This document shows positions 5,501 through 64,000 of a DNA stretch of 64,000 nucleotides, piece after piece. The position numbers were made by a program, and so were the translations under genes. The stretch covers positions 34,224,001 to 34,288,000 of the forward strand of contig OZ260663.1 in the NCBI GenBank assembly GCA_965285935.1. The letters are read 5' to 3'. The notes under the pieces were generated by a model that worked only from the letters and a program-made list of their open reading frames with translations, was not told where the DNA came from and searched no databases. Positions within the stretch are counted from its first letter, which is position 1. Every line of letters starts with the position of its first letter. The DNA comes from Ophelia neglecta. Lineage: Eukaryota.

Positions 5501-8500
5501 ATATGTGCACTGATGAAGCCAAGGGTGATTTATCGAGAATATTATTAATGCTAGTTAAAACAAAAGTGAAAGAAGCAATATGTATGTTTGTAACAGGTTT
5601 CACCGTAAACGTTAATATCAATTTAATTGTTCGTACTTTTGTACTGATATGATTGAATTCAACTATTTTCCAGGCATAGCAGGGAATATCATGATACTGA
5701 TTGCTTTCTTTATCAACAAGAATCTACAGAAAGCCCAAAACGTTTTCATTTTCAACCTTTGCCTGGCCGACTTGATGGTGACTGGCCTGGCCGATCCCTT
5801 CAGCATCATCGGTATTTACTTGCAAATGTTTCAACTTAGTATTATAATAATCACCGTGTTTGTGTGATGGGTTGCTTATAATTAAACAGGTACATTATAC
5901 AATGTTGTAAAGCCAACGTGATAGTGTACACAAATCGAGTGTATATACACGTTTGTAGTAAGCCTGTGAAACACGTGTTTCACTACGAATCAAAGGTATA
6001 TGCCAAGTGAAATAAATGGACTTTTTCTGTTAATTGTTTTCCTACTCTACTCGTTGTACATACTACTGCGTCTAAACCGACGCGATGCCGATGCCCCATA
6101 AAAATGCGAAGGTTGAGTCCTTTTAAAAAGGTTTACTAGTACAACATTACCCTGCGTGGCAACTTCACATGCCTTTAAATATATGGCAGCTTTTGTAACC
6201 CAGACTTTGTGTAAAGAATAAATTAAGGGCAGGTTTGAATCTGTTGCATTTAGTATGGGCCATGGCATTTCTTGCAGAGGTTTTAATAATAGTATCAAGG
6301 ATTGGCAAGGTATAAATCACACAGTGTGTCCCCAAACAGGGAGGGAGGGAACGATGGAAGGAAGGAAGGAAGGAAGGAAAAGAAGTGGGGGTGGTTTGTT
6401 GAGTATTGAAGAAACAGAGGGCAAGAGGGAAGGGAGGAAGTATGGATGAGGACAAGATGTTAATGGGAGGAAGGGTGTTAAATGTAATAAGTTTGGCCCT
6501 TTAGAACAATATGAATTGCAATTCAGGTGTACATAATTACAATGTGACAGTGAACACACAGTCACCCTCCTGACGTGTGTTCACAAACAAATACATGCTT
6601 GTAGACACTAACATGTTGTGCCTCCAATGTTTTGGAGGTTGACCATTATAGTTTCCGGCTTTTTTAAACAGAGAATCGACAGATATTAAGTGCACCTATG
6701 TGTGCGGATATCCGTTTATACAAAGAGCGTAGGGAACTATGTACAATGCGCAGCGAACCAGAATTTTTTGTATCAATGGACATACTGGATCATATAGGCC
6801 TATAATCGACAAATCAGATATTAAGTGCACCCGTGTGTGCGGATATCCGTAAATACAAAGAGCGGAGGGGAATCGTTTACAATGCGCAGCGTTTATCAAT
6901 GGACAAACTCGATCGTATTTATAAGCACGTTCTCTATTTGTTAAGATATTAAGTTCTCACTACTAATCGTTAGGGACATTCATAACCGAAGGAGGTGCTT
7001 GATATATACGATCAATTATGTCCATTGATAAACGAAGACCTCTGTCGATGCACTTTATATTTCAGCAAATTGTAACTCAAGGCAAGGCCTACAGTTCGCT
7101 ATACATATATATATATGTGCGTGTGTGAGTGTGTATTTCGCATAATGGACAGCATCAGGACATAAGGTTCAGCTTTTCTACACTGTTTTTAGTAAACCTA
7201 AGTATGGCAATTTTCATCCCCTCCTCCCCCCTCCCAAAGAAAAACAAAACAAGGAGAAAAACACACGAAAACCCATAAATCCATTCGGGTCAATGCCAAT
7301 AGGTGAAAATACCGCCGGTTATAGTGCGATAAATATGTGAATTGCGAATAGTGCGAATCAGAAACGAAATAGAAAACGAGGAAAATCAATTAATATTAAA
7401 TATGGAAAACTCGTATCAATGACTAAAACACTTTGATTCCAAAACCCCACAATTTACATCTATTATATGTATAAGAGCTAAGCTAAGAGTTTCTTGGGTT
7501 TTCTGCTTACAGGGATCACAGGCGGGAAGAAATATTTTGATGAGAGGCCTGGGTTCTGCAATGCTCTGTCCGTAATTTGTTTCACCTCATGTGTCACTGT
7601 TTTACTCAGTATGGGGGGCATCAGCTTCAACCGCTACCTTCATATCTGTCATCCGAACATCTTTCGAAAGGTAAGTTGAAAATAGATGCGATCGGCAACA
7701 GGTTATTGACAAAAGAGAACTCGCTGAAAAGTCTGATTGGTGGATAAAGTATTTAAATTATAAACACGGAGTTGTCGACAATGTTAACCAGATGGCAGCG
7801 CAGCACAGTGCGGGTGTTTTATGCCTAGTGAGGACTATGCTAATATGTAACAGTAAGAACTGTCAATACAAGGTTAATAAGGTCATGAGAAGACCTATTG
7901 ATGGTTCCAATCGTCGGTAACATTTTTAACAGTTACGTTATTTGAAGGTTTTGAAGGTTTTGCATAGTAAGAAAGAGGAGCCGGTTGGGATGTTGTGTGT
8001 GTGTGTGTGGGGGGGGGGGGGCTGCACGGTATTAGGCGGGGCCAAATATGGTGATATCTACTGGCAAAGAGCCAATTTCTTTTGATTTTCTTTATTATGA
8101 CGAAATCTTCACTTATAGGTGTTTAGTCTAAAGAAGAATATCGCCATGTGCATAAGTTTTTGGTTCATCGGATTTCTTTTGGCATCCTGCACATTAGTAA
8201 GTGTAAATATTACGACGTAAGGTTTTAAACTCGTGATATTGATATAAACAACTGAAAATACGGTATTAACTATTTCTATAAACCTATTTCAGAATGGTTG
8301 GTCTAATAATAGGTACGACCCAAAAATGTTGGAGTGCATATGGAACAGACAAAAATCATTTAGTTTTACCATATTCTTTGGCGTTGGGATCGTGTTCACG
8401 CCTGTCATTATAATCACATTCAGCTACGTCCGTATATTTATGCACGTCCGGGCCAGCAGGGCAAAGGTACAAGACAAGGTACGAAGGGTCCGAGATGTTC

Positions 8501-12059: not shown

Positions 12060-14620
12060 GCCAAGCACAGAGCGGATGATGTCCCCGTTTCTTCAAAAAA
12101 ATCTAATAATATTGAGATTTTTCCCTGGTCAACCTGTCCCTTGGCTGAACAACGCCACCTCCATCCATATCTCAGCAAGTTTACATATGCCCCCCTTGTG
12201 AAGACAGGCAGGAGCTCAACGTCCTCGTCTGTGCGAGCGTCCTGGTCAGTCCTAACCTGCAGATTTTGATAGGCTGTAAGCCTAGTGCTTAGCCGGTTTG
12301 GGTCTCTTAAATAGGTGATTGTGCCGGCTTGCGCTTATCAAATGACAGTTTAATTACCCATTTTATTTTACATTTTACATTTACCTTTAAGTTGTACGAA
12401 AGACAGCTAATCGAACTGAAGTGACATATAATTGCACGCTTACCCCCCCCCCCCCCCATACATCCTGTCAATATGCAGGGGCTCGCGACCAGAAAATATC
12501 CTATCTTATGAATACGTTTGCTGGCTGGGAATAAGACAGTTTGGGATCATATTATAAGACGCCAAGGTGCTGTTGGGAGAAATCTGTTGGAAACTTGAAA
12601 ATCATTGGGCTTTCTGTTGGGAACTTGAAAATCATCGGGCTTTCTGTTGGGAACTTGAAAATCATCGGGCTTTCTGTTGAGAACTTGAAAATCATCAGGC
12701 TTTCTGTTGGGAATTTGAAAATCAACAATCCAAGGCGTGTTGGTGGCAAATGATTGTACTAAAAATACACAATCAGTATTGTCGTAGTAGACTTATCGTT
12801 ACATAGGCATATGTAGTTTTTTTAACAACTTTCCTTTAAATAATTGCGTTTTTTAGGTTGATCAATTTACTTTCATAGGAATCAACATGTACGATGTATA
12901 GTTTTATTTTTCTTAAACGTTCGTGAGAATTAATACGATAAGGACAGTTTTTAAACTTTTTATTAACAATATAAACACAATTGGACATCTAGAAGTTTTG
13001 TTTACAGGTAAACCTTTATTTACACATGATGCACCCCTGAGTTACAAAGGAAATGTGATTTTTACGACTGTAAAGTTTGTGCTGGTCTTCTGCCCGGGTG
13101 TGATAGTATTTCGTCATTTAGTTCTTATATCGAAAAGGGTTGGTTGGCTTGATTTAAACGAGAAATTATCCCATATGGCTCACACACACCTAGACTAAAT
13201 TTTGAAATGTAACTAAATGTCATTATAATCTCATAATATTCTATAATACCGGGTAAGTATATGCGGTAATTACGGTAAGGATCTACATCTCTTACATCTA
13301 GGCTGATACTAAAAGACATTAACAAAATTCCAAGCATTAATTGTTACAATTGCTTATCTATTATCTATAACCTTACTCATTTGCCAGCTTAAAGTGAACT
13401 CAAGTCCACATATATATTACTACGAGGTTCCAAAGGCCAGCTTTAATCATGATAATAAATGGACATTTAGTTTTGATATGACGTGATGCCTTAAATTGTT
13501 AGAGCATAGTGGGGTCGGGGATACATTCTTGTCTGTATAAAATGTGGAGAGGTATTACGCTGAAGCCCTGAAAACTACATATAACACTATATGGCCAAGA
13601 TGGGTAGTGTATTTTTAATATTCGCCAGAGAGCAGACTCATGCTTTCCTTTTTTTAATATTCATGTAACTATTAGTAACAATTTATGTATATCCAACTAG
13701 TTTTTATTGTTCAGAGCAATCATCGGGCTAGAGAGACTTTTCCCACCACAGAGGAAATGCTCACTATTTCACGGTTCAATATAATAATTTCTGTAACATT
13801 GCATAATGAAAACATAAGTTTGGGAGGATATGGCAGGTTAAATTGAAAATTAAATGGTGTACTATCTGTAACCATCGTTAAAAGTCCCAGGGTTCTTGTG
13901 GATAGCAATCCTTGACCTCCAATACGGGACTCTTTAAAGGTGTTTTGATATCTTTTGTACTGACTGTAGGAGACAGCTGAACAACATTTCTTTTTAGGAG
14001 TCTTCAGCATGAAGACCATATTCTCATCGCTTGTAATTGTACTTAATAACACTTGTTCGAACCTTTTTGCTTCGACCACGGGTACTTGTTTTCTTCTCAG
14101 TAAAGTAAGTGCTCCAGGTGCTTCAGTTCTCCAAGCCACCGATCGAGTGAGGGAAGCTTCATTGAAGTCATTTATATATGCGGTTATTTCACCAATGTTT
14201 TCTTGCAGTTTCCTCTGCATCTTCTCCAGATCACAGATCTGTCAAAAGAGTGACCAAAGCTTTTCGTCCGTGACTCTTTCAGTGCCACTGGCATACTATG
14301 CACGATGCCCACTCTGGGAATAAGGCCATCCCCTCTCATCAAATATGTCACAACGAAAGTCATAAGCAGTCGTGGCCTTAATGAATGCATGTAATAATTC
14401 TCATCCATGTCAATCACAAACAATAAAAACTCTCGAATGCATTTTGTTTAGTAATAAGGTCAGTTCACAAATACACCTAACACTAGTTGAGTTCTTCGGG
14501 TTAGAGAGACCCCTCCTACCACTTAATTCATGCCAGAAGTCCTGTCATGACACACTCACTATATGGTGCTCAAAATCGTATCTATATTCATCTATAAACA
14601 ATTTCTCAGTACACAAAATA
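12060..14620 (-). pseudogene. Decayed multi-exon coding remnant downstream of the transposase, possibly SET-domain-like
   Basis: ORF 13720-14220 contains KESRIGGQGLLSTR (resembles the SET N-terminal S.I.G.GL motif). Exon-like pieces after AG acceptors give YGIISRLNQANQP (~13150) and VRTDQDARTDEDVELL (~12230). The matches are weak. Confidence 0.3.
12583..12725. repeat. 30-bp tandem repeat, ~4.7 copies
   Basis: Unit TCTGTTGGGAACTTGAAAATCATCGGGCTT starting at 12583, 12613, 12643, 12673, 12703. Confidence 0.95.
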
Positions 14621-14929
14621 AATTATACCCGCATTACAAGTATCTGTATTTCCAATCAAAATAAAACTTGAGTTACACTCCGTCTGGTTGAAAACTGTTT
14701 CAGCACTATCATGTCAACTCTGTTGAATGATTATTATCTTAAATCATATTAATAGTTCTTAAAGTTAAAAAACAATCCCATTTATATCAAACAGGTCGCC
14801 TATTATCTACATTATTTACATAATATTCACTATCATGGAATGTCAACATTGGCGTCGGAGGTAAATACATGTTACAAGGCTACCATATTATTCGGTAGAC
14901 TTAGTTATCTTCTGATCACAACGTTCCAT

Positions 14930-17900
14930 CAAAACCAAGGGGTTGTAGTAGTAATATTCATCTGATATGAGAAAAATCTGTGCAAAATGGGCTTTTTTCT
15001 TGAAGATGTGTCGTAACAGAGAGCAGCTCGTACCTGAAAATTATAAATAGTTAAATTAGGTATGCATAGTTATATGCGAGTCATTCATGTTTAGGAGAAT
15101 AACTTGAGAAAAAACAAAATGGCCCATAGGAGTATTCCCAATCATGAATCTATGTTTTTATAGGGGCATAAAATGCAAATAAATAATTCTCAAGCACTTA
15201 TCTAACAGTGGCAACCCATAAAGATTCGGCGGCCCCTCAAAAACATAAAATTCCTGCAGCCCCTGCTTCTCGCCAGCTACAAAGTAGCTTGAGAAACTAT
15301 GTCATATATTTTATTGCCTAATACAGCCATGTGAGAAACTAAGACTTAAATGGCTTTCCTTAATGATAACATACCTACAACTTGAGCTTCTTAGCTGCTT
15401 TGGAACTCTACAAACTGTATCAAACGCACCATTCCTTGTATCTCTAAAAAAATAGAAACACTCATTAACATACATTGGCATATCTTTCAATCGCAGCAAT
15501 ATTCGAAATATAGCCAGCCTCGGCAACAAAATTGAAAATATAGTACCCTACATTCTGAACCAAATATCATAATGAACATTAATATAGATGATTTTACAAT
15601 AAATTTACCTAACATCCGTCCAAAAAGGCACATACATGATGTATGGCCATTGGTTCACTGTCACCGTTGACTGCTGCGTTATTTGTTTGCACTGGCCACA
15701 CTAGTCAACAAATGGACAGCTTTTGTTATACCAAGTCACGATTTCTTGAAGAGGTATGTCTTTTTCCAGATCGGCTGTTTTTAGAAGTTCCTTCAATGCA
15801 GGAGCTAGTTGCCAGCCGAGCAAGTCTTGTGTCTTTGTTCTCTGCCTTTCTTTGTTCCTCGGACACAGCTGGTTGGCACAGGTGAAAACTGTGGTCATTG
15901 ATGAACCGCACAATTTGGGACTTAAACAGTACTGATCCAAACATGGGGTACTCGCATGAATAGCAATTCAATGAGTACAATTTTTTCAGAGAACCACACA
16001 CTACTGTAGGTTTTGTTTCAGGCTGTAAATTCTGAATGAACTTCAAACGGGCTTGGCTCCAGTTGTTGTGACTGCTGTCTGTGGAAAGTAAGCTGAACAG
16101 GTCTGCCAGAGTTGCCAGGAAATGTATCCCCTACCACATTAGTTGGGGTTTCTTTGAACGATCTGTCCATTTGATAACAGATAAATAGTCTGGATAAAGC
16201 CCCGTCAATTACACAGGTGTTTATGAGATCTAACTTAGAATCATTTTTGAATGAAGTCGTGCCTTGGAAAGGTGAAACCAGAGTGTTCAAATCGACTCGA
16301 GTTATAGATGTTGAATTGTCAACTATTGTTTCTTTGGCAGGGCTTTTGTTATTCTGAAAGAAAAAATCTATCTTTTCTGATGGTTTGGCTGGGTTAGACT
16401 TGGATGTTTTAGGTTTGGCTGGCTTGGGTTTGGTTAGTTGAGTCTTCTTCTTACTTGGAATATCACCAAGGGCAGATTCTGCGTTTCTTTTTTAACCGGT
16501 ATTTTCTCTTTTCCTTTCCTCTTTTGCGTTCAGCTTTTCTTTTTCTTTCATGGTCACCAATAGATCTTCATAATCTGACGTTTGTTTTTTTCTTTATGAC
16601 ACGACCCCTACTAGATGTGTTTTCAAATGGTCCTTGGTTTTTAAATAAGTTTGAGCCTAACCAGGCATTGTGAATATCATCATATTTGTCGAATTTTACC
16701 AGGTACAGGGTTTCATGTGTTTCTGGACAGAAATTCTCAGATACAATCTTCTCCACAGGATAAAAGACTTCTGTAGAATCAGTATCACACACCTTTTCTT
16801 CAATTTGTCCAGGATCCTCAGAATCTTCCCATGAATTACCTTTCCCCTTCAATAAATCGACTGTTTCTTCAGATAGCAGTAAATCTTCACTATCTTCATC
16901 GAAGTGAATTTCGGTGAGGATCTTCTTCACAGATGTCCAGTTGACAATCTTTGTAGTATGTGGCCTGATCAGTAACCGTTCTTTGATATCATAGAGAACT
17001 CCTCTCATTTTGGAATTGCTTGTTGGATTAGCACTATACTCTGGTTTGGTGCCATCTATAATGGAATCAATTCTAATAATTGTCACCCAGTTTCCTGATG
17101 TTCTGATCGAAGTGGCATAGATTTTTCCTGGTAGGACAGTATGTTCTTTGGGAATCGGCTTGAAACCATGTAATGGTCCTGCCCAATGCCTCTACGAACG
17201 GGCTTTATCTACATGGTCCTTTCCTGAAATGCACATTTTGATAAACCTTTGAAGATGGATTCTCTTTTCGCCGTATTTAACGTACATTTCCCTGTTGTTG
17301 TCAATAGCACCCTCATCAACATCATCGTCAAAGGCGGTGAGAGCTGGTTCTTCATACACTCTGTCTTCGTCAATGACTTGATCTTCGTCTTCGACATCCT
17401 TTGGTGATTCTTCAATTTTGCCAGGAAATTGGAAGGGCACGTTCAATTTATTATATGGTTGATGTGGTGGCTTTGTTATGACCCAGTCTTCATGATGTTC
17501 ATAATATAAGGGTCTCCCAACAGTCATGCACCTGAAGGGTCTCCTTAAATCCTTTTGGTAACCGTTCCGTTTCATCTCGGCCCCTGGCAAAACCATCCCG
17601 TAGCGCCTGCCGCAACTCATCACGAAATTCCTCATAGGTACTCGGATATTCATAACGATCACCAACCCTCTGTCTCTTCTGATTGGACATTGCAATCTTT
17701 TTTCTGGAGGATGTACTCTTTGATTTGAAACCTTTTTCTTCTAAGATATGAAGTGTGCCCAGGTTCAACTGAGGGTTTGCTGCACGATCTAAAGTCTCGG
17801 CTAATGTTGGTTCTTGGTTAGTACTTTGTATGCTGGTGGTTTTGCACTGTGTCTGGCCAATGAACTTTTCAGTGGCTACAGTGGTCGCCTTAACTGGGGA

Positions 17901-20900
17901 AGAAAATTCCGGTGTAACATTGCCATGTAGATAAAGGGCAAGCTGGTAGTCTATAGTTGCATGGAATTGTACCTCAAAGCTGGTATAGGTCTCTTCAGTG
18001 ATAAAATAGCCTCGCTTGTGGAAGTCATCCTTTGCTCCCGGTTTGGCATAAAGTCTTAGTCCGCTAAGTTCAATATATTTTCGCCAGGATCGCATCATGT
18101 ACATACCAGTCCCAATGGTTTGCATGATTTCTGGTGGAGTCATATCTGCGTCACGGAATGGACACATTAGGTAGTATATCATGTTGATATATATTACAGT
18201 ACCCAGACTATCGGGGACGTACTCTTGCAGCAAATCAGCCATTTTCAAGTCAAACATCTATTAGGCAATATCGGGGTTCTGGTCAAAGAATTCTATGAGG
18301 ATAACATCATTCTCATTCAACTGGAATGGAATACTGTTTTTGATGCAATACTGTCTCAAATGCTGTAGTTGGTCAATAGTGATTATGATTCATTCGTCTT
18401 TGTTCTTATACAATGTCAGGCCTGGGCTTGATTACTTCGGCATACGCACTGCTGAACTTTGATTGTGCTCAGGATCCAAGAGCATGACCGATGGGTAGAT
18501 TCATTAGTAAGGCGACATGAACCTCCCTTCTTTCATTCCAAGACCAAGGTTTTTCACTCATTTGCTAGCCAAGTCTATGTTTGGAGTCATGAAAACCCTG
18601 TAGAATCTGTAATGTGCCCAATGCACTTTATACCAAGTTTGTGGCAAATCTTTCGAAATTCATTCTGGACAAGGAACAATGCAAAAGCGTTGTAGCCTTT
18701 CCGAGGTGTTCCCCAAATGCCAAAGTATTTAGCTGCTTTTCATCATTGGTTAGGCAGGTGAAGTTGTGAATAGATGCATGACTGGCTAGTTTATCTTCTT
18801 TAATCATTTCCAGAATATTTTTTTTCAAGTACTCCACAAAGCTCTTCTTCCGAACATATTGGGAGTTGCATGTTATCTGGCCATGTAGAAGGATTTGGAT
18901 TCCATGATTTTCCTACCAATTCAATATTGCCGTCTTTGTTTCTTATGGCAGTCAAGGTTCTGAAGAATAACTTGACATATTTTCTATCACTTTGATACTA
19001 TCAATATACATGCTTATCAAGATTTGAACCGTAAAACTACAAGCCTATATAAAAATTATAAATTGCTTCTCGAGCTTTCATTTTGCCTGAGTAAAAAAGA
19101 GGGCGACGGGAAGTTTTATTTTTATGTTTTAATTGTTACAACAAAAGGGTGGGTGGGGGAGGGGGGCAGCGGAAGCCTTTTTATTTTCAAAATGGCATAT
19201 ACCTTTTGACCCTTTCTTCATTACTCCATTCCATCACCAGATCTCCTTTGTTTTCAAGACATCAAGGCTAAACCCGCCATCAAAGCTGATTCTAGACTGC
19301 ACTGCTTTAGCAGTGGATGCAGCAGGTAAATCAAACAAGTCCTGAAATATAAATGTTTCATCTAAGTATCCTTTCAGAATCACCAGTGGATTAAGATATA
19401 AGAATTACTTATTTAATTGGATGTAAGTTGCTTACGGCATTTAGGCTTAATGTTTGCAGTAGAACTCAATAGATATACACAAGAAAAAATGAAATAACTG
19501 AACCTTTAGAATATAAAAGTGGTGATCTCCTAAACAGTTTTTGTTCGTCAGGGCTATTTGCTTGATAATTTCTGGGTACTCGTGTTTCCGGCAAGGTTTT
19601 CATTTCATAATCATATTTTCTAGAACAAATCGGTTAACTTTTGAAGAATATTTGTCACTGACAGCTTCCCTAAGTGTTGCACTAAAAATGCTTCGATATC
19701 CCCGACCTTTTCTGCTGAAGTCAGCATATTAATTATTCTTTCGGTTTCTTTTTCTTTGGCAATTTTCTGGTCTATTAACTTATGGCTCGATTTCCCAGAT
19801 TATTTCATTAATTGCATCTTTCCTTTCAGCTGATTTGGTGTTAAGTTTTTCTCCGTTGTTCCTGGCTGGAAGAGTCGATTGTAGGGTGCCACAAGTTTCT
19901 TAGGCTTGTTTTTATCTTTTGTGAGAATGTTCTTCAGGTAGTTTGCAGTCTCGCGGTAGTGAAGGCACATATACCGATTTGGGCCTTGTAATTTCTTGGC
20001 AATACCAGTGCACTTCTTATTTCGGATAACAGAACCAACTTAGACCTTCTTAATGTTCACTAAATATGATACCCCGATATACTCCACTGCAGCTAGGGAA
20101 TAATCTTCTTTCTTCAATTGTTGATGTTCTGTTGGGTGGTTCAATGTCCATTTCTGAAAATGTTTACGTGTTTCATGACCTATACATTTCCGTGTCAACT
20201 TCCGTTCATTGTATAGTGATTCGGCATTCATCCCATGAATAATTCTCCGTTCTTTGAATTGATTCACTACTTCTTCTTCATGTACTCCGAGGCACCTTTG
20301 GGTTAGTATGACATTATCAGATTTTATGAAGTTTTTTAACGTGCGGCGTTGATGGCCCGGACTAATTTCCTTCTGAGCTTGTTCGGGAGATTGCAATGGT
20401 TTTTATAGACCGTGTGTAGTATGCTGATTTCCCATGTTCAAACACCTGCTTCACACCCTTGAACGTCAAGCCTTCGACTTTTTCTTTCTTGTTGAAAATC
20501 CTTTCAAAACTCTGACAAGCGACACATTGAAAGTGGAAAATGCTCCTGATGCTGCTGTTTTTGCGAATTGGGCTACTGTTTGTTCTACCAGGGTCACTTT
20601 AACCTTGAATGGAGGGAAGAGTGTATGAACCCACGCTCTCAACTTAGATGCCTTTGAGTTATAACACCTCCGACTCTGTGCTGCCAGCTTTTCTAGCCAA
20701 TCTTGTTCTAATTTCTGCTCAGGTGGAAGAACGTTATCCATGTAATGACACATTGAATGACTTTCTGTTGTGCCAATGGCTGAACTGAATATGACCATGT
20801 CAGAAACTTTCAACTGTTCATAGATTTTCCGGACTGTTAGTGGTTCTTTCAGCACCTCTTTCAGATACTCATTAAATTCTAAATTGATGATGTCAGACCT

Positions 20901-20980
20901 ACTGGCACAGGTAGATAATTCTGCTTTGAGATTAGACCTGCTGGTGTAAGATGGGCCCTCCGTCGTCTTCTTTACTTCTT
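14930..20980 (-). pseudogene. Decayed P-element-superfamily-like DDE transposase with C-terminal chromodomain and USP-like cysteine peptidase
   Basis: Ordered motifs across stops and frameshifts: DLPAAST (~19330), LVMEWSNEERV (~19225), IKCIGHITDS (~18610), LLDPEH (~18475), FDQNPDIA, MRSWRKY..FITEETY..FHA..TTVATEKF (ORF 17499-18257), chromodomain (ORF 16568-17086), PFQG..INTCVID (~16215), YELLSVTTH..HFAQIF..YYYYN (15033-14935). GT-AG introns at 19342-19503 and 18960-19202. Element termini not found. Confidence 0.6.
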
Positions 20981-20998
20981 TACGGGAGCATATTGATA

Positions 20999-21070
20999 TT
21001 CCCCCGTCCCTATGTTCCCCCGTCCCTATGTTCCCCAGTCCCTATGTTACCCCATCCCTAGGTTCCCCAT
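20999..21070. repeat. 17-bp tandem repeat, ~4 copies
   Basis: Unit approximately TTCCCCCGTCCCTATG(T), at the point where transposase coding similarity stops. Confidence 0.85.
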
Positions 21071-24926: not shown

Positions 24927-27900
24927 TCAGTTCATAACAAAATCATTAAAACGTGATGGAGGTTTATGGCTCCTTACTGGTCTCTGGTCTGCAATGGCTT
25001 CATTTACATTTTTTTCATCATAATCACAAGAACTAAAATTTTGAGAATCATTATGCTGCTGAAGGATTTCATCTTGTCCCTCATTCAATTTACGAAAGTA
25101 TGTACTGTTACGCCTGACTTTTCGGCCCTGATCGTCTGCAGCCGTTATTTCTCCTCCCTTCCTGTCGACAACTTTGTATGAGTTGTCCTCGAAATTAGTA
25201 CTCATTTTGTCAGTCTTTTTCATTCGGACCAACACTTTATCGCCGACATCAATCGGATCCTTGATTGCATGCCGTTTCTCATCAGAGTACTTTTTTCCAT
25301 CTAGTTTGTGAAACCAGTCTCTGTCCCTAATTTCTTCATCACATATTTGAGGCTCTCTCCTCAACTCTGGGAGTTTTGTTTTCATCTCCCTACCGAACAT
25401 CATGTAGTAGGGCGTGGCGTTTGTTGAAGCTTGTGGGGTGGACCTATAAGCTATTAAATATTTGTCCAGTTCATAACTCCAATCCTTTTTCTCTGCCTTC
25501 GCTACTCGGATGGCCTTCATCAGGCTGCGATTTTGTCTCTCGACTTCTCCATTTGCCTGTGGCCACAGCGGAGTAGTTTTTCGTGACTCGACACCATATT
25601 CACTCAGAAATTTGCTAAATTCTGCCGATGAGAACTGCGGCCCATTATCTGTCCTGATGGAAAATGGAACCCCGAAGCGAGCAAACATGTGACTTATTGC
25701 TCGTATAACACTCTGTGCTGTCGTTGATCTCAATATGGCCACCTCATAATACCTACTATAGTAGTCCACAACTACCAATATGTTTTCCCCAGTAGGTAAT
25801 GGTCCCAATAGATCTGCTGCCAAATCCTCCCACGGTCCAGAAGGTGGCACCACTCTAGCCATTGGCTCTGGTGGCCTGTACTCGCTCACCAACTGGCATC
25901 CGTAGCATGACCTACATTTCATTTCTGCTTGTCTGTCCATTTTCGGCCACCATACCTTGCTTCGCAGTCTGTTCTTCGTTCGAACAATCCCTTGATGGCC
26001 TTCATGTGCAAGAGCAACTACTTTCCCCCTAAGGGCTTCCGGAATCACTATTCTTGTGCCTCTCAACAAGAGTTCACCATACACACACAGTTCATTTTTC
26101 ACGTGTGCATATACCGGGTATGTGCATCTTTCCCAATTCCCTGTTTTAACACAGTTTTTAATTTGATGCAGTTCTGGATCTGTTCCAGAAGCTTGCTCAA
26201 TTTCTTTGGGGGACAATGTTATTGGTATACTACTTTCTACCACCGATCTCACAAAATCATATTTTTCTCCATGATCCTTGGACTTGGAGTTTAATCGGGA
26301 AAGTACATCTGCTATATTACTCTTTCCAGGCCTGTATACTACCCTGAAATCATAAGCTTGTAGGCGTAGAATCCACCTCTCTATCCTTGCAGATGGTTTG
26401 GATTTAGGGGTGTATATATACTCGAGAGGCTTGTGGTCCGTCTCAAGCTCAAATTCCCTTCCAAAAATGTATAGGTTGAATCTCTCACAGGCCCACACTA
26501 ATGCTAGTGCCTCCTTTTCCGTCTGACTATATCGTCTTTCTACGTCTGTTAGGCAACGTGATGCATAGGATACTACTCTCCATTCCCCATTTTGAAGTTG
26601 GGTGAGCACAGATCCCAACCCCACCGGAGACGCGTCCGCCACAATCCTCGTTTTACCACCCACCTTGAAATATGCCAAGGTATCTGGGTGGGTGATCCTT
26701 TTCTTCAGTTCCTGGAATGCAGTTTCCTGTGTTTTGCCCCATATGAATGGCTGTCCTTTCTTTGTCAGGTCTCGGATGGGCCTGGACAATGTCGCAAGAT
26801 CAGGAATAAATCTCGCTGAAAATTCTACAAGGCCCATGAATGATCTGGCCTCGCTGGCTGTTTTTGGTGCCTCTGCATTCTGAATTGCTGCTATCTTTTC
26901 CTCACTTGGATTCACCCCCTTGTCTGTCAGTTCATGTCCAAAGAATGTCAATTTGGACATTCTGAATTCACACTTCTTACGGTTCAATGTAAGGCCTACC
27001 TCCCTCAACCTGTTCATCACTACACACAGTCTCTCATCATGCTCATGCACACCTTTCCCATGCACAATAATATCATCTGCAATGTTAGCAGCACCTTCAC
27101 ATTTTCTGAAAACATCCTTTATTATTTTCTGGTATTTCTCTGGCGCCGATGATATACCAAACATTAACCTTTTATATCTGAATAAACCTCTGTGTGTTAC
27201 AAATGTGGTTATATGGCGGCTCTCTTCTTTCAGCGCAATTTGATGAAAACCCCAACGAAGGTCAAGCTTTGAAAATAGTGTGCTCTCATTTAAGTCCTGC
27301 AATATGTCTTCCACCGTAGGAATGGGTTGGCGTTCCCTGAGTATAGCCTCATTGGCTCGGCGCATGTCAACGCAGATCCGAACATCGCCGTCACTCTTTG
27401 GCACAACTACCAGGGGCGAGACCCAGTCGGTTGGTCCCTCCGGCACTTCTTCAATAATATCCTGTGCTATAAGCTCATCCAGCTTCTCATCCACCTTATC
27501 ACGTATACCAAAGGGGATCCTCCGCACACTTTGTGCCACAGGTTTAACATCCTGTTTCACATTCAAACCAAGTTCATATCCCTTAAGGAGTCCCACTCCT
27601 TCAAACACATCTTTAAATTTCTCATGAATGTCTACTTCTGTATGTTCTGAAACCACACTGTTAATATGTATTGGACCTACACGGAGAAGCTTCAATTGCT
27701 CTGCTGTGTCACGGCCAAGTAATGTTTTTCCTGGCCCATTTACTACCACAAAAGCAGCTTCACACTGTCTGTTACTGTCCTCTGATGTAATTTTGGCTGT
27801 GAATGTTCCTAATGTGTTCAGAGGCTTCTGACTGCCATAGGCAAACAATACCTTTGCCTCCCTTGTGGTGTCACACTGAATACCCTGAGTTTTCAACCAC

Positions 27901-28976
27901 TGCCATGTAGGCCTACCTAAAATGTTACTAGTGGCACCTGAGTCGATAAGGATATCACTCACATTTACCCCACCTAGATTCAGAGTTACTGTCCCTGAGC
28001 TATATGATTTTTCACAGTTTATGCTAAAGGCATATTCACCACCATTGACATCTGGCTCTCTGGCACCCATTACATTATGTGTGTTAGAGCCTCTACCTGG
28101 ATGTCTTCCATTTCTGGCCCCACGGAAACCTCCTCCGCGCCTCTGGCCTCCTACCTGTCCCTGGCCCATTCCAGGCGGTTGTCCCCGTTTATTTTTACAC
28201 TTAACAGCGAAGTGTCCGACTTCAGAGCAGACCCTACATGACAAGTCTTTTGCCGGGCACTTTTTGTCCCTGGCAAAATGTCCAAAACCTCCACAGGCAA
28301 AACATTCCTTTGCCCTATTGCTGCCCACAGGATTTGACGGTTCGCCCCTCCTGTGATACCCGACAACATTGACATCACCTTGCTTCAAGTGATTTTGAGG
28401 ATTATATGCTGAGCTGGAGTCATAACTTCCGGTATCCATTACTTTAACTTGATGATCAACTGCTTCGAATGCTCTGCCAATAGTAAGACAGTCATCTAAT
28501 TTCACATTGTCTTTTTCAAGGAATTTCCTCCTAAGCTGGCTTGACCTACATTTATCTACGACTTGGTCCCTGAGGTAGTCGTTTTCAGCTTCATCAAATT
28601 CACAGTTGGCAGCCCTCTGCCTAAGTCGACACACAAACTGATCAATTGTTTCATTTTCCTCCTGGGCTATTTGCCGAAATAAATGTCTTTCGAAAGAGGC
28701 GTTACTTTTGGGTGTAAAATAATCATCTAAAATTTTCATGGTTTCAGCATAATTCTGGTCTTCATGTGACAAAGTATAAAAAATATCTTGTACCTGCAGT
28801 CCCGCACAATGCAACAATAGGGCGGTTTTCTGCCCATCCGTTGTTACCCCTTTACTTGTTGAATACAATTGAAAAGCTCTCTTCCACTTTCTCCATCTCT
28901 GTGATATACCGTGTGGTTCTCCCTTCGGGTCAAAAGGCTCCAAATTTCCGATGTCTCCAGCCAGTAAAGCAGCCAT
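24927..28976 (-). CDS. Gypsy Gag-Pol polyprotein, 1349 aa
   Basis: Two CCHC knuckles (CFACGGFGH..C, CRVCSEVGHFAVKC), protease LIDSGA, RT VRICVDMR..NIADDII, RNase H ADAS..TDHKPL, integrase HEGH..CYGC..D..TDNG..EVERQN. The PR-RT-RH-IN order is that of Gypsy. Confidence 0.97.
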   Translation of the reverse strand: MAALLAGDIGNLEPFDPKGEPHGISQRWRKWKRAFQLYSTSKGVTTDGQKTALLLHCAGLQVQDIFYTLSHEDQNYAETMKILDDYFTPKSNASFERHLFRQIAQEENETIDQFVCRLRQRAANCEFDEAENDYLRDQVVDKCRSSQLRRKFLEKDNVKLDDCLTIGRAFEAVDHQVKVMDTGSYDSSSAYNPQNHLKQGDVNVVGYHRRGEPSNPVGSNRAKECFACGGFGHFARDKKCPAKDLSCRVCSEVGHFAVKCKNKRGQPPGMGQGQVGGQRRGGGFRGARNGRHPGRGSNTHNVMGAREPDVNGGEYAFSINCEKSYSSGTVTLNLGGVNVSDILIDSGATSNILGRPTWQWLKTQGIQCDTTREAKVLFAYGSQKPLNTLGTFTAKITSEDSNRQCEAAFVVVNGPGKTLLGRDTAEQLKLLRVGPIHINSVVSEHTEVDIHEKFKDVFEGVGLLKGYELGLNVKQDVKPVAQSVRRIPFGIRDKVDEKLDELIAQDIIEEVPEGPTDWVSPLVVVPKSDGDVRICVDMRRANEAILRERQPIPTVEDILQDLNESTLFSKLDLRWGFHQIALKEESRHITTFVTHRGLFRYKRLMFGISSAPEKYQKIIKDVFRKCEGAANIADDIIVHGKGVHEHDERLCVVMNRLREVGLTLNRKKCEFRMSKLTFFGHELTDKGVNPSEEKIAAIQNAEAPKTASEARSFMGLVEFSARFIPDLATLSRPIRDLTKKGQPFIWGKTQETAFQELKKRITHPDTLAYFKVGGKTRIVADASPVGLGSVLTQLQNGEWRVVSYASRCLTDVERRYSQTEKEALALVWACERFNLYIFGREFELETDHKPLEYIYTPKSKPSARIERWILRLQAYDFRVVYRPGKSNIADVLSRLNSKSKDHGEKYDFVRSVVESSIPITLSPKEIEQASGTDPELHQIKNCVKTGNWERCTYPVYAHVKNELCVYGELLLRGTRIVIPEALRGKVVALAHEGHQGIVRTKNRLRSKVWWPKMDRQAEMKCRSCYGCQLVSEYRPPEPMARVVPPSGPWEDLAADLLGPLPTGENILVVVDYYSRYYEVAILRSTTAQSVIRAISHMFARFGVPFSIRTDNGPQFSSAEFSKFLSEYGVESRKTTPLWPQANGEVERQNRSLMKAIRVAKAEKKDWSYELDKYLIAYRSTPQASTNATPYYMMFGREMKTKLPELRREPQICDEEIRDRDWFHKLDGKKYSDEKRHAIKDPIDVGDKVLVRMKKTDKMSTNFEDNSYKVVDRKGGEITAADDQGRKVRRNSTYFRKLNEGQDEILQQHNDSQNFSSCDYDEKNVNEAIADQRPVRSHKPPSRFNDFVMN

Positions 28977-29092
28977 GATCCCACACGTTCTTCAAAATCA
29001 ACACTAAAATTGTCCACAAAATATCCTCCCTTTCTGGTAATTCCCACAGAAAATATTCCTCTAAATATGTCCAACACAGCCTTGGGTGACTT

Positions 29093-29105: not shown

Positions 29106-31318
29106 GTTGTAGTATTTAGCCCGATGACCCTGGATGACTTGTGATTGTCAATAATAAACACGTCACTATTGACCATGTGCTTTATTCCTCCACAGACTAT
29201 AGATAGCTACCTACAATAACCCGGATGTTGCCAGGAAGTCCCAAATTACTAAAGTAGTAATAGTGTTCTAAGTAGTACCTTACTACTTTTACTCTGAACA
29301 CTACAATTGGTACTGCTGGTTTAGCTCGAATGGTGTTGCAGATAATGCACTTGTTGCATACTGAGTCCATTTAGGAACCAATACTTCAGCCTGATTTCGG
29401 CGAGAACTCTTTCAGCACCTGCATGGGGTACTCGGCGGTGGGCGGCATCAACTATGATTTGCACAACATGGTGGTTGTTTGGTAGAATTACCTGGTGCTT
29501 TGCATCCAAAGGAAGATACGACTTTTTCAAGTCTTCCTCCAATACGGACTAGACCATCAGGGTGTACTGTAGGGTTGAATCTACGGAGTGCCTGTATCGG
29601 TGGTAGAGCTCTCTGCACTACCAGGAGTATGGCAGTTTCAGCAGACTGCAGTTCATCAGTGGTTAGTGGTCCGGGACTCGGTTTCTGTTTACGGAACAAT
29701 TTCCCACATCTCCGGTACCAGGCAACGGCTTTCTTCAATCGGAACCATGAGGAGTAGTAGTTCAGTATGATTGAGGTGTAATCGATCTCTGTTTTTGCAG
29801 AGTAGACTGCGAGGGATACTTGTGTACTTCTGTCGGCATAACATCTGGAACACCCTTCGTGCTTGGAGTATGTACGGGCTAACAAATCCCAAGGGATAGT
29901 AAATGGCGCTAAGGGTACTGAGAACTCCTCGTTTGGTGTCCGGTCTTTGTGTAATTTGGACATCGAATCCAAAGGCATCTTCGGCAACGTGCCAGAGCAT
30001 ACCAAGTGCTCTTTCACTCGGGAGGGCATCAAAGCAAACATCAAGGGTCGATGAAGCCTTTCCCAAATGTTCCGGTGGGATTACGTTAATTAGCTCCTTG
30101 CAATTTGATATCCACTTTGTCAGGTTGAAGCCTCGACGGGATAGTGCTTCTCGAAGCTCGGTGGCCTATTGAATGGCTGTAGGTATGTCGTCGACGGATA
30201 TAAGGCAGTCATCAACCTAGAAGCTACGGACAATTGCTTCACAAACTTCTGGGTTATATTGGTCTTTGAACTTCTCAGCTACACTCTGCAATGCATAGTT
30301 GGCGCAGCTCGGGCTCCAGACTCCTCCAAATAAGTGAGCAGTCATACGGTATGTGGGGTAGGTATTCTTGGTGTTGTCATCCTCAAACCATATATACCGT
30401 AGTACATCTCGGTCCTTCGGAGTTACCCAGACTTGATGGAACATAGCTTCAACATCGGCCATGAAAGCTACAAGGCCCTTTCGGAACCTTAACAGTACTC
30501 CTACAAGACTGTTTGTTAAGTCCGGTCCTTGGAGTATGTTGTCATTCAGGGAGTACCCTTGGTATTTAGCGGCGCAATCGAATACGAGGCGACTTTTCTC
30601 GGGTTTCTTTGGATTGAATACCGGGTGGTGTGGAAGGTACCATACTTTGTTGTCAGAACGCTGAAGTTCAGGTTCGGCGACTCGTTCAGCATATCCCTTG
30701 TCCGCTAATTTCTGGACTTCGGCAGTGTACTTCTTCTTAAGTACAGGGTCACGATCTAGGCGCTTTCCTAGGAGGGCTAGTCTTCTTTCTGCCATGGGAA
30801 GATTGTTTGCCAGGGCAGGCTCTTTTGCTTTAAACGGTATGTCAAGGGTGTAGTGTCCATCCATGAGGGTTTTACTGTTTTCCCATATATCTAGAGCCTT
30901 TTGGTCATCAATAGACATTCCTTCTTCCTCCGACTGAGATCCTTCTAGTTCCCAAAGTCGGGCAAGGTCGTTCTCGAGTGGTGGGCGCTGTACAAAGTTG
31001 GGGTATAGGAGGTCCCACAGGACCATTGACAGCCCATCCAAGGGGAGTGTGTACTGCAAATGGCTCACCAGGACTGCCTGTACGTCTTTCGGTAGGTAGA
31101 AGTATATCAGGACAGTCTTGGCCAGTCAGTAAGTCGACTTGGTTGATAACCAAATCTGGTATCTGTAGGTCGGCTAGGTGCGGCCATTCTGCGAGATCAA
31201 CTTGGCGTGCCATACTTGCCGATGATATATTAAGTCCAGGTCGGACTGTTTCTTCTGGTATGGTAAATTGTTGGATGTCTCCTAGGTCCGCTATCATCAA
31301 GGTGACAACTATAGCCAC

Positions 31319-31541
31319 GGGTCATAGTTGGGCAATGTTCCTATAACAAATGGCTAGTCCTACAATCTGTCGCCCAATGCCTTATCTACTTATAGGGGGC
31401 TGCAGCATCAGAGCTTATCCATATCCGGTTTACAGTGGAGGGAAACTAATCTGAGAAATAACTAGGTGTCATAGTGACATTAAACGTTTACAAAACAAAT
31501 TATTATAAAAAAGTAAAAAAAAAAACAGGAGGTTCGTTACA
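31319..31541 (-). repeat. Bel/Pao 5' LTR remnant
   Basis: Direct repeat of 23817-24044, joined directly to pol sequence at 31318 by a deletion that removed the PBS and gag. Confidence 0.85.
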
Positions 31542-40900: not shown

Positions 40901-43292
40901 TCATCATTAATGTATGCGAATCATGAGTATATTTCTATCAATAAAAAGCAAAATCAATTAGCCTAATAAAAATGCATGGTATAACAACGTTCGGTGCCAA
41001 GATTAGAGCTAAAATAGCATGGCAAATATAGTGAATACGGCGTTGACCAGGAATCCAGCTATTCCTACAATAATATGCCTATACCGATGCAACCCTGCAC
41101 TGTGATATAACATTAAAATACCCTGCTCCAAACCCATGGGACCAGCTGGTTCCTGAACTTGGTCACAAAGATCCACCAGTGAGATTCATGATTTATCATC
41201 ATAAGTCACTCCCCTGTCTTTTCCTGCTCAGTCTCCCGTGGGTCAAGTGCTGTCACCAATCCCTCACCCTGTCAGGACCACCAAAGCCTGGCCGAGTGGT
41301 TAGAGCGTTCGCCTCGCAAGTGGTAGATCGGGGTTCGAATCCCGATCGCGTCAAACCCAAGATGTCAGATGAAATGCGCAAATCGCGGATGTATCGCGTA
41401 AGACTCGAAATTTGTGCGTGATTCATGCGTTTACGCGACTTTTGGGTAGTTTGAGCCGGCCTTCAGTAAGATTATCTGAGACCATGTGGGTTATTAAACC
41501 ATCCGTATTTCCCTCACCTCGGTTATATGATTACTTAATTTTATGGCGCGAGGGGGTGGGGTGGGGTGGGGGGAACTGCCAGGAAAGGCACGGTAGGCGT
41601 GGTTCTTAAATAGAGGAGTACTTATTTGTCGACTGTGTTTTTGTCGTCAGGGTATGACTGGATTTCGCCAGGGAGAACCAATGGACAAGCTTGGTCACCG
41701 AGGGTCACCCACCGGAGAACTTATATTTGAGGACTGCATAATACCAGGTGTTGCCTTTGTTAACATTCTTAAGTATCCGTTATATATGTATCCGGCTGGT
41801 AATTAATATGACCCTCTAGTTGTCTGCAGAACTAGAACTTAATGTATCTCATCATGTATTATTGTAATTTAGCAGATATTTCATCGACATAAAGTTTGAT
41901 CATATTTCGTTTTCCCCGTGGTTACAATTAAAAACTAATCAAGCACAGGAGATTACTATTAGGAAATGATTATTATCGTGGCTCGTTTTTTGTACAGAAA
42001 GCAATGTACTTGGCAAGGAGAATAGGGGAGTTTACGTGTTGTTCAGTGGATTGGACATAGAACGTATGGTAGTTACAGCAGGCGGGATAGGGTGAGTATC
42101 GTACTAAACGAACGTTACTATTAACGTTAGTTAACACCGATAAATTAATGTCGTTTTGTTGAATATTCGCCAAGTAAATCGATGAATCCCAGACGACAAT
42201 ATTTGTGTTATCTTTCGACTTGTATTCAAGTTAATCTATATTAACGAAAATAGCATTTTCTTTGCGAGAGTAAAACTATTAATTTTACGAACTCAGTTCA
42301 AACTTTATGTTCCAGAATAATGCAGGCGTGCTGTGACGTAGCTTTTGAGTATGCACATACTAGGAAGCAGTTTGGTACAGTCATAGGAAAGTTTCAGGTG
42401 TGCTATGCGCAGAAGATATTCGTGAACGTCTTAATGAAAACAAATATCAATAGAAATTACAAATTCAATACGAGATTTTTCCCTAAAGCTTTAGCATCGA
42501 TTTCTGTTACATATATTTCTCTTTTATTCGTATATAACATTTCATTGTCATGTTTATTAATCGTTTGGACGATAAGCAACGCTATTCGGCATAGATATTT
42601 ATTTCTTTGGTTTCAACACAGTCTATATAAGAAACATCTTTACAGTTGATACAGGGTAAAATGGCGGAGATGTATGCCTGCCTACAAACCAACAGGTCAT
42701 ATTTGTACTTTGTTGTTCGTGCTGCAGAACAAGGAAACATTTTGCCACAGGTATGATATTTCTTCATTGGAAATAGTAGTATGGTGACAAAAAAGGTGAT
42801 TATCAAATCAAATGATATACTATCTAATAAACTAAAAATGTTTGTTTTTCAATAGTGATATAATTCAGTCGTGAATGTGCTACGCGTCATCGTTACGTGT
42901 CATTCCAGGATGCCGCTGCAGCCTTATTACGCGGGGGAGAAGACTGCGTGAAGGTTGCTCTAGACACTGTTCAAATTCTCGGTGACTGTATTTTTATTTA
43001 TAAATTGCGATGTACAGACTGCGATTTACCGATTTACACATTTGAATTCAGACTCAGCATGTAAATTTTTACAGACACATTTAATGTTTTATTTTTATCA
43101 TGACGTGGCAAGTTCTCTTCTCTTATTGACCAATCGTTTTCTTCCTTTTATTCGTGTAAAGGTGGAAACGGTTACGTAAACGACTACCCGGCCGGACGAT
43201 TGCTGAGAGACTCCAAATTGATGACGATAGGGGGCGGCACAACAGAAATTAGAAAATTGGTTGTAGGGCGAGCAATCAACGATTTCTATTAA
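37910..43292 (+). CDS. IVD: Isovaleryl-CoA dehydrogenase-like, mitochondrial, copy 2 (12 exons)
   Basis: Exons 37910-38077, 39237-39326, 39593-39644, 39868-40037, 40504-40597, 40741-40877, 41651-41747, 41998-42091, 42316-42397, 42646-42750, 42909-42981, 43162-43292. Intron positions and phases match copy 1, and the frame is open throughout. Confidence 0.93.
41286..41365 (+). mobile_element. tRNA-derived SINE head in IVD copy 2 intron 6
   Basis: Pol III A box TGGCCGAGTGG (41289) and B box GGTTCGAATCC (41332); no convincing acceptor stem. Extent of the SINE body not determined. Confidence 0.6.
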
Positions 43293-63097: not shown

Positions 63098-64000
63098 ATG
63101 GATTTTTTCAGATTATGCGGAGTGTTCTCCGTGATTGGTTTTCTCTCTTTGATAGGTGCGTACTATATAGCATGCATTGAACTGAGACCATAGAGTATTT
63201 TTGTTGATTTATCTGTTGTTGACATAGCATATGCCACGAATTATCAATTGATTCCATGCCTGTAGTTTTGTAAACGATTCTACTTATGGGTGATATATTA
63301 ACATCTAATTACACTGTGCCACAACTTCATAAAGGAATGTTTCGTTCGCTAGCATAAATATTACCTGCGGATATTTAAAGACCGTAGACCTATGGCTTAC
63401 TGTATTCACATATATGGTATACAAGCATTTGTAACTTGTTTATAATTGTTTTTTGCTTCCACTTTCCTCATCCAGAAACGACGCCAAGTATTACGCATGC
63501 TCTCGAAGATGTTCACCATGACGTCAGTGATCGGTTTGCACTATGTTCGTTGCTAGGGGGAAAGTGCATTGATCTGATTACATCCGAATGTCCGTCTGAA
63601 AACTCAGTAGATACGTATGGTCGGATTAAACGAAAAAGCTTTGATTGCAACAACACGCAGTTATGTTGCTTTAATAACACCGAATCCCACTCCTATGGCA
63701 GCCACTCTACTCAAGTAAATGGTAATTTCTTTGAACACAATCATTTGTTGAGAACAGAGGAGGGCCGAACTCAGTTATGTGGGTTGATAAACGGAACATG
63801 TGTGGGGCCTAACGACTGCGCAGCATTACAAGGCATACCCGGCTATAAACTCAGACAGAACACGTTTGATTGTAACCTGACCTCGCTTTGTTGTTTCCCA
63901 TCGTTGCATGAGCATAGTTTTCATGGTGACTTCGGAGATGGGTACCGCGGAATTCAGAGACACGGTGCTTACGGTCGCAGACGTGTCGGTAGATATAGCT
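63098..64000 (+). CDS. Secreted protein with two tandem six-cysteine beta-defensin/clip-like modules (3' end outside window)
   Basis: Signal-peptide exon 63098-63155 (MDFFRLCGVFSVIGFLSLI, phase-1 GT donor) joins a pyrimidine-rich AG acceptor at 63476. The exon stays open to the window end and contains C-x6-C-x7-C-x18-C-x5-CC (63544-63669) and C-x6-C-x5-C-x17-C-x5-CC (63778-63894). Confidence 0.75.

Follow-up and report, generated by a model that had tools for sequence, protein, structure and literature searches.

The beta-defensin-like (trans-defensin) fold has three antiparallel strands and disulfide pairing 1-5, 2-4, 3-6. In big defensins, according to the available text of PMC7203481, a hydrophobic N-terminal domain precedes one cationic defensin domain. 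Tick carboxypeptidase inhibitor (TCI), of 75 residues, inhibits through a C-terminal tail that enters the active site (PMC13388685, available text), and the repeats of rusticalin have been likened to TCI (PMC6339383, available text). Clip domains are described, in the accessible part of PMC1761132, as having five residues between Cys2 and Cys3 and adjacent Cys5 and Cys6. A different group of secreted proteins is known from annelid materials: the Nereis jaw protein (NVJP) has approximately 36% Gly and 27% His and carries GYGHG/GYGGH motifs; coordination of Zn by His hardens the jaw proteins, whose assembly follows a rise in pH; and the cement of the sandcastle worm joins Lys/His/Gly/Tyr polycations to polyanions with catechol curing (all from the portion of PMC9999432 available).

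The window analysed here is a stretch of 64,000 nucleotides of the Ophelia neglecta genome (G000:C5:34224001-34288000), and its end truncates a gene of the plus strand. Exon 1 (63098..63155) begins with an ATG at 63098 and comprises 58 nt (19 codons and 1 nt, phase 1), and it encodes a signal-peptide-like hydrophobic stretch whose Kyte-Doolittle 11-residue maximum is 2.6, at residue 9. The predicted intron (63156..63475, 320 nt) has a GT donor at 63156, a strong polypyrimidine tract and an AG acceptor. Exon 2 starts at a phase-1 junction at 63476, in agreement with the signal exon and large exon proposed by the first-pass annotation; its 5' part occupies 63476..64000 and the remainder extends 659 nt beyond the window, to a stop codon at G000:C5:34288657-34288659 with an AATAAA about 60 nt 3' of it. 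We infer the 63155/63476 splice from sequence features and because paralogs have a phase-1 signal exon of this kind; contigs from three runs of one sample, which are not recorded as RNA, retain the intron unspliced. The predicted spliced ORF encodes 413 amino acids with 25 Cys, 24 of them within six-Cys modules and one in the signal region, and the protein is predicted to be secreted.

This is a real, constrained gene. The contigs of the three runs (one sample, one study) carry 11 allelic coding differences, 8 of them synonymous, with no indels and no Cys changes, and this synonymous excess has p 5e-4 against an expectation of 22% and p 8e-3 against one of 33%. The six-Cys pattern occurs twice in the window; in simulated sequences of 64 kb that preserved its dinucleotide statistics it appeared in 0 of 40.

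The two modules seen at the window edge, from which a double six-cysteine protein had been proposed, are both present, and the full ORF holds four. Module 1 (63544..63669, residues 43-84) carries a sequon immediately after Cys4 and is joined by a His/Ser-containing linker (63670..63777) to module 2 (63778..63894, residues 121-159), which has two sequons and a predicted helix-strand-helix-strand-strand order of beta-defensin-like type. The first part of a central spacer of 124 residues occupies 63895..64000 and leads into the exon 2 portion beyond the window, with modules 3 and 4 (residues 284-317 and 349-389) and then a basic tail. Gly (22.6%), Arg (13.7%), Tyr (10.5%) and His (8.1%) together make 55% of the central spacer, whose net charge is +16; the His-rich and Gly/Arg/Tyr stretches quoted in the earlier reading were found in the translated sequence. 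After the last Cys there is a 24-residue tail with a basic block at its end, and the tails differ among paralogs. No Cys of the mature chain is left over for disulfide cross-linking.

A survey was made of 32 modules in 12 sequences, six from the Ophelia neglecta genome and six from elsewhere; it left out two genes and other intron-split modules. The spacing between Cys2 and Cys3 is five residues in 31 of the 32 modules and that between Cys3 and Cys4 ranges from 12 to 46, while the search pattern itself set the Cys1-Cys2 and Cys4-Cys5 spacings. A sequon lies in or just before the module in 32/32 cases and directly after Cys4 in 24/32, compared with 1.6% per position in the spacers, these counts coming from homologous and hence not independent modules. 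The 413-residue protein itself has seven N-glycosylation sequons, and it is likely, judging from these sequons, that the modules are N-glycosylated. The net charge of a module goes from -5 to +4 (mean -0.4), the Cys3-Cys4 loop of module 4 contains 4-7 His in five of six proteins, and GYGHG/GYGGH motifs appear in 4 of the 12 family sequences. The spacers vary in length and repeat content; the modules persist.

All four modules have the six-Cys C...C...C...C...CC array of trans-defensin type. In the AlphaFold model of module 2 (pLDDT 74) a helix accompanies three strands, and the model of modules 3-4 had the same pattern as separate, unpacked beads (pLDDT 57, pTM 0.36). With VIA-align, chains of beta-defensin fold occupied the top 7 of 23 rows for the module 2 model (Z 2.6-3.7), and beta-defensin-type chains occupied 6/6 rows for the module 3-4 model (Z 2.5-3.1); the best structural rows had an rmsd of 2.0-3.8 Å over 36-44 residues, with low Z, at most 3.7. 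Foldseek returned beta-defensin-type chains in 5 of 6 rows for the module 3-4 model, none significant, and for a single module 0 of 38 rows reached E<=0.001, the rows being unrelated. Since the rows agree, the scores themselves being low, the models give weak but consistent support to a beta-defensin-like fold; the first-pass annotation had advised AlphaFold/Foldseek for the disulfide topology. The modules resemble beta-defensins (CpoBD13 7t9q, AvBD3 7lzl, AvBD11 6qeu, hBD2 1fd3, hBD6 2lwl) in the six Cys ending in CC, in the G-x-C at Cys2 and in the predicted helix and three strands. They differ from these in being four copies in a 413-residue chain, with a long Cys3-Cys4 loop, neutral charge and conserved sequons.

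The module also recalls arthropod clip domains, with which it shares six Cys, the CC end, the five residues between Cys2 and Cys3 and the long Cys3-Cys4 loop, within the range described for them (PMC1761132, available text), and one could imagine a clip-domain regulator lacking a protease and docking onto serine-protease cascades. This is very improbable: the reading frame closes behind module 4 without a serine-protease or homologue domain, no trypsin motif was found in 30 kb downstream, there was no CLIP Pfam match, and beta-defensin-type chains account for the structural rows covering the module. No clip-domain chain appeared among the rows of any fold search, an absence that does not by itself exclude the fold. 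Because the trypsin domain is absent, the gene does not encode a clip protease, the possibility for which a trypsin domain in the following sequence had been sought.

The same fold searches bring in TCI (1zlh, 2jto), which fills the top 2 of the 6 rows that Foldseek gave for the module 3-4 model, at an E-value, 1.5, that is not significant. As in TCI and in the N-terminal repeats of rusticalin (PMC6339383, available text), units here predicted to be beta-defensin-like would stand in tandem within an invertebrate protein that is secreted, and the modules are paired, which would suit a multi-headed protease inhibitor resembling TCI with its two beta-defensin-like domains. We regard such an inhibitor as quite improbable, considering that the modules stand 31-36 residues apart and were modelled unpacked, and that the tail, ending here in a basic block, varies among paralogs. 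Unlike TCI and rusticalin, the protein has long low-complexity linkers, a long basic tail and no peptidase domain, and the rusticalin spacing Cx6Cx6-7Cx8Cx7CC, as given in the available text of that source, is unlike that of its modules. A free inhibitory tail of the TCI kind is not what the gene encodes, a 413-residue chain, and processing could alter this.

In the genome the family has at least 8 intact-looking copies and one frameshifted copy at three loci, a count taken from five protein searches with family members and from exon-based gene models read by eye. The first locus, on C5, contains the gene described here and, in tandem with it and 3 kb downstream, paralog B, which has three exons and four modules. 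At the second (C9:35.39-35.41 Mb) there are four genes, whose module counts are 1, 1, 3 and 2, together with the frameshifted copy, which lies just upstream of an intact paralog on the minus strand (G000:C9:35407600-35407790, in L014). The third (C9:45.88-45.89 Mb) is a convergent pair of genes with four modules each, and one of them has a spacer about 800 residues long. A phase-1 signal exon like exon 1 is present for paralogs B, F, I and E; the heuristic scan gave 14 candidate signal exons, five of which were assigned to family genes, and found none for the remaining three intact genes.

The genes around the locus (glutamate-receptor-like, AMP-binding, transposons) offered no functional clue. 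Between the gene and paralog B runs a very high-copy short repeat (L010:1795-2160), whose summed contig depth reaches about 25,000, compared with 11-29 in the flanking sequence. A channel-less glutamate-receptor ligand-binding gene lies 13 kb past the window on the plus strand (L011:3844-4119 and 5896-6513; G000:C5:34300844-34303513); its S1 is directly continuous with S2 in one exon, it ends in a hydrophobic tail, and it aligns without gaps to engineered S1S2 constructs (E 4e-16). A genome search with it gave 13 matches, 11 of them on C12, and no signal exon was found for it by the heuristic scan. Within the window, an acyl-CoA dehydrogenase-like exon was seen at 42254-42646 (+), its Pfam E of 4e-4 falling below the cut-off. 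An element of Ty3/Gypsy type by domain order occupies 24930-28991 (-), with an intact 1354-codon ORF for reverse transcriptase, RNase H and integrase. The fragmented ORFs at 29451-31343 (-), of which one was scanned with no Pfam match, look from their motifs like a retrotransposon of Bel/Pao type. Several same-strand open frames, 134-252 codons long, at 13723-21041 (-), four of them scanned with no Pfam match, are possibly a decayed large transposon, and one ends in a chromodomain-like stretch. Erythrocruorin linker genes are present in the genome and, taken with the Capitella match, speak for an annelid, although such linkers are not confined strictly to annelids.

Outside the genome relatives are few. 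A phmmer search of 1.84 billion representatives gave 6 matches, 4 of them true relatives and 2 chance matches to PKD-repeat proteins (P0005, P0006), which were rejected. Two further relatives came one from a word-based search and one from a metagenome scan (one relative in 65 pattern matches); the word-based homologue searches yielded 1, 1 and 2 proteins and are of low sensitivity, the module query having missed P0001. The sole named relative in these searches is the Capitella teleta hypothetical protein CAPTEDRAFT_188240 (ELT87423.1, R7T3U0), which aligns across all four modules (E 3e-26) and has 64% identity in the module 4 core. It shows the four modules in the same order, an Arg/Tyr-rich central spacer, a His-rich module 4 loop and a similar strand after module 4. 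It differs in that it is uncharacterised, its spacers are poorer in Gly and His, and its predicted N-terminus, perhaps a modelling error, lacks an evident signal stretch. In the module tree (32 modules, 56 columns kept) module 4 of six proteins formed one clade (support 98/95) and modules 3 and 4 grouped together (97/90), modules 1-2 being left without a firm grouping. Since the module 4 clade spans species, the four-module layout is likely older than the split from Capitella.

Pfam gave no family at E<=0.001 for exon 2, paralog B exon 3 or the Capitella protein, and for 16 modules its best E-value was 0.014, to an unrelated family, with no CLIP and no defensin match; the PDB sequence search had nothing below E 1.3. 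Full-text literature searches turned up nothing that describes the family or its member in Capitella, and the Capitella accessions occur in 0 main texts. They are likewise absent from the supplements of PMC11149249, PMC8476170, PMC6350857, PMC11014941 (11 of 15 files) and PMC13094222 (12 of 14 files), and the available text of 10.1101/2025.10.03.680064 and PMC11149249 mentions no such proteins. By these comparisons, the genes likely belong to an undescribed family of multi-domain beta-defensin-like proteins that lacks a Pfam model, is shared with Capitella and is likely annelid.

An immune effector was among the first proposals for this locus, and it is now not favoured, the modules being neutral, sequon-bearing and conserved. 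In its fullest form it would be an immune or mucus-defence precursor from which convertases release defensin pairs and a cationic Gly/Arg/Tyr peptide that bind or kill microbes, or whose His-rich parts withhold metals. The beta-defensin-like fold, the clustering of the paralogs with their variable module number, and the R-x-K/R-R sites, three in the protein, including two, at residues 239 and 242, in the positively charged spacer that separates the module pairs, would agree with such a precursor. His/Gly/Arg-rich stretches are also found in antimicrobial peptides. Nevertheless we judge it unlikely: no R-x-K/R-R site exists in paralog B exon 3 or in the Capitella protein, and module positions are conserved across species. 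The small cationic mature peptide of an antimicrobial beta-defensin is not seen in modules with charges of 0, 0, +1 and -4 in one long chain. The hydrophobic domain of a big defensin is absent as well; beyond the signal region, hydropathy rises above 1.5 in just two isolated 11-residue windows, both inside modules. Capitella is reported to be without big defensins in the available text of PMC7203481.

The probable glycosylation brings in a further reading. Glycosylated mammalian beta-defensins coat sperm, and by that model the glycan-prone defensin-like modules of a small paralog family could serve in a reproductive or signalling coat protein or ligand on the surface of sperm, egg mass or cocoon. 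Gamete proteins are typically fast-evolving, unlike the strongly conserved module 4, and we consider this reading doubtful.

We tentatively favour, at somewhat less than an even chance, a structural or adhesive matrix glycoprotein, that is, a building block of a secreted worm material such as bristle, cuticle, mucus or tube glue rather than an antibiotic. An adhesive or matrix protein had been only a side suggestion of the first-pass annotation, and we infer that it is the best fit to the evidence. The modules are neutral, probably glycosylated and conserved in position, while the His/Gly/Tyr/Arg linkers vary freely, and a modular matrix protein therefore fits better than a membrane-lytic peptide. 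In such a material the disulfide-locked, glycan-covered modules would be compact soluble nodes; the His-rich linkers and the His/Asp-rich module 4 loop might bind Zn or Cu on the passage from an acidic granule to the pH of seawater; the Arg/Lys/Tyr blocks could condense with polyanions, with tanning via Tyr a possible addition; and paralogs with 1-4 modules and spacers from about 120 to 800 residues may tune the material.

This chemistry is proposed by analogy with the Nereis jaw proteins and sandcastle-worm cement. Like NVJP and the Phragmatopoma cement proteins Pc-1/2/4/5, the protein is an annelid secreted protein rich in His, Gly, Tyr and basic residues, a likeness that is compositional only. 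It is far less biased than NVJP, with 12.1% Gly and 6.8% His overall against approximately 36% and 27%, and it has none of the GYGHG/GYGGH motifs, so that its composition is not that of NVJP. The available text of PMC9999432 mentions no six-Cys modules for NVJP or the Pc proteins. Against a matrix protein stands also the Capitella member, whose spacers contain only 14.7% His+Gly+Tyr, and the lack of a free Cys for cross-linking points the same way. A single named species was matched, which argues against a universal bristle role if the libraries cover other bristle worms.

A bolder and rather improbable extension is that annelids turned the defensin scaffold to a new use, as a structural node coated with glycans, and that the conserved family contributes to the matrix of chaetae or of some other hardened secretion, setting by His-metal and Tyr cross-links. 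If the proteins were instead immune or inhibitory, they would extend the multi-domain defensin-like proteins in a more ordinary way. Should the chaetal proposal hold, the family would give a sequence handle on how annelid bristle chitin is bound and hardened. If the matrix reading is true, a host-defence fold would have been reused as a building block of marine biomaterials, and the family would supply candidate genes open to direct testing in Capitella.
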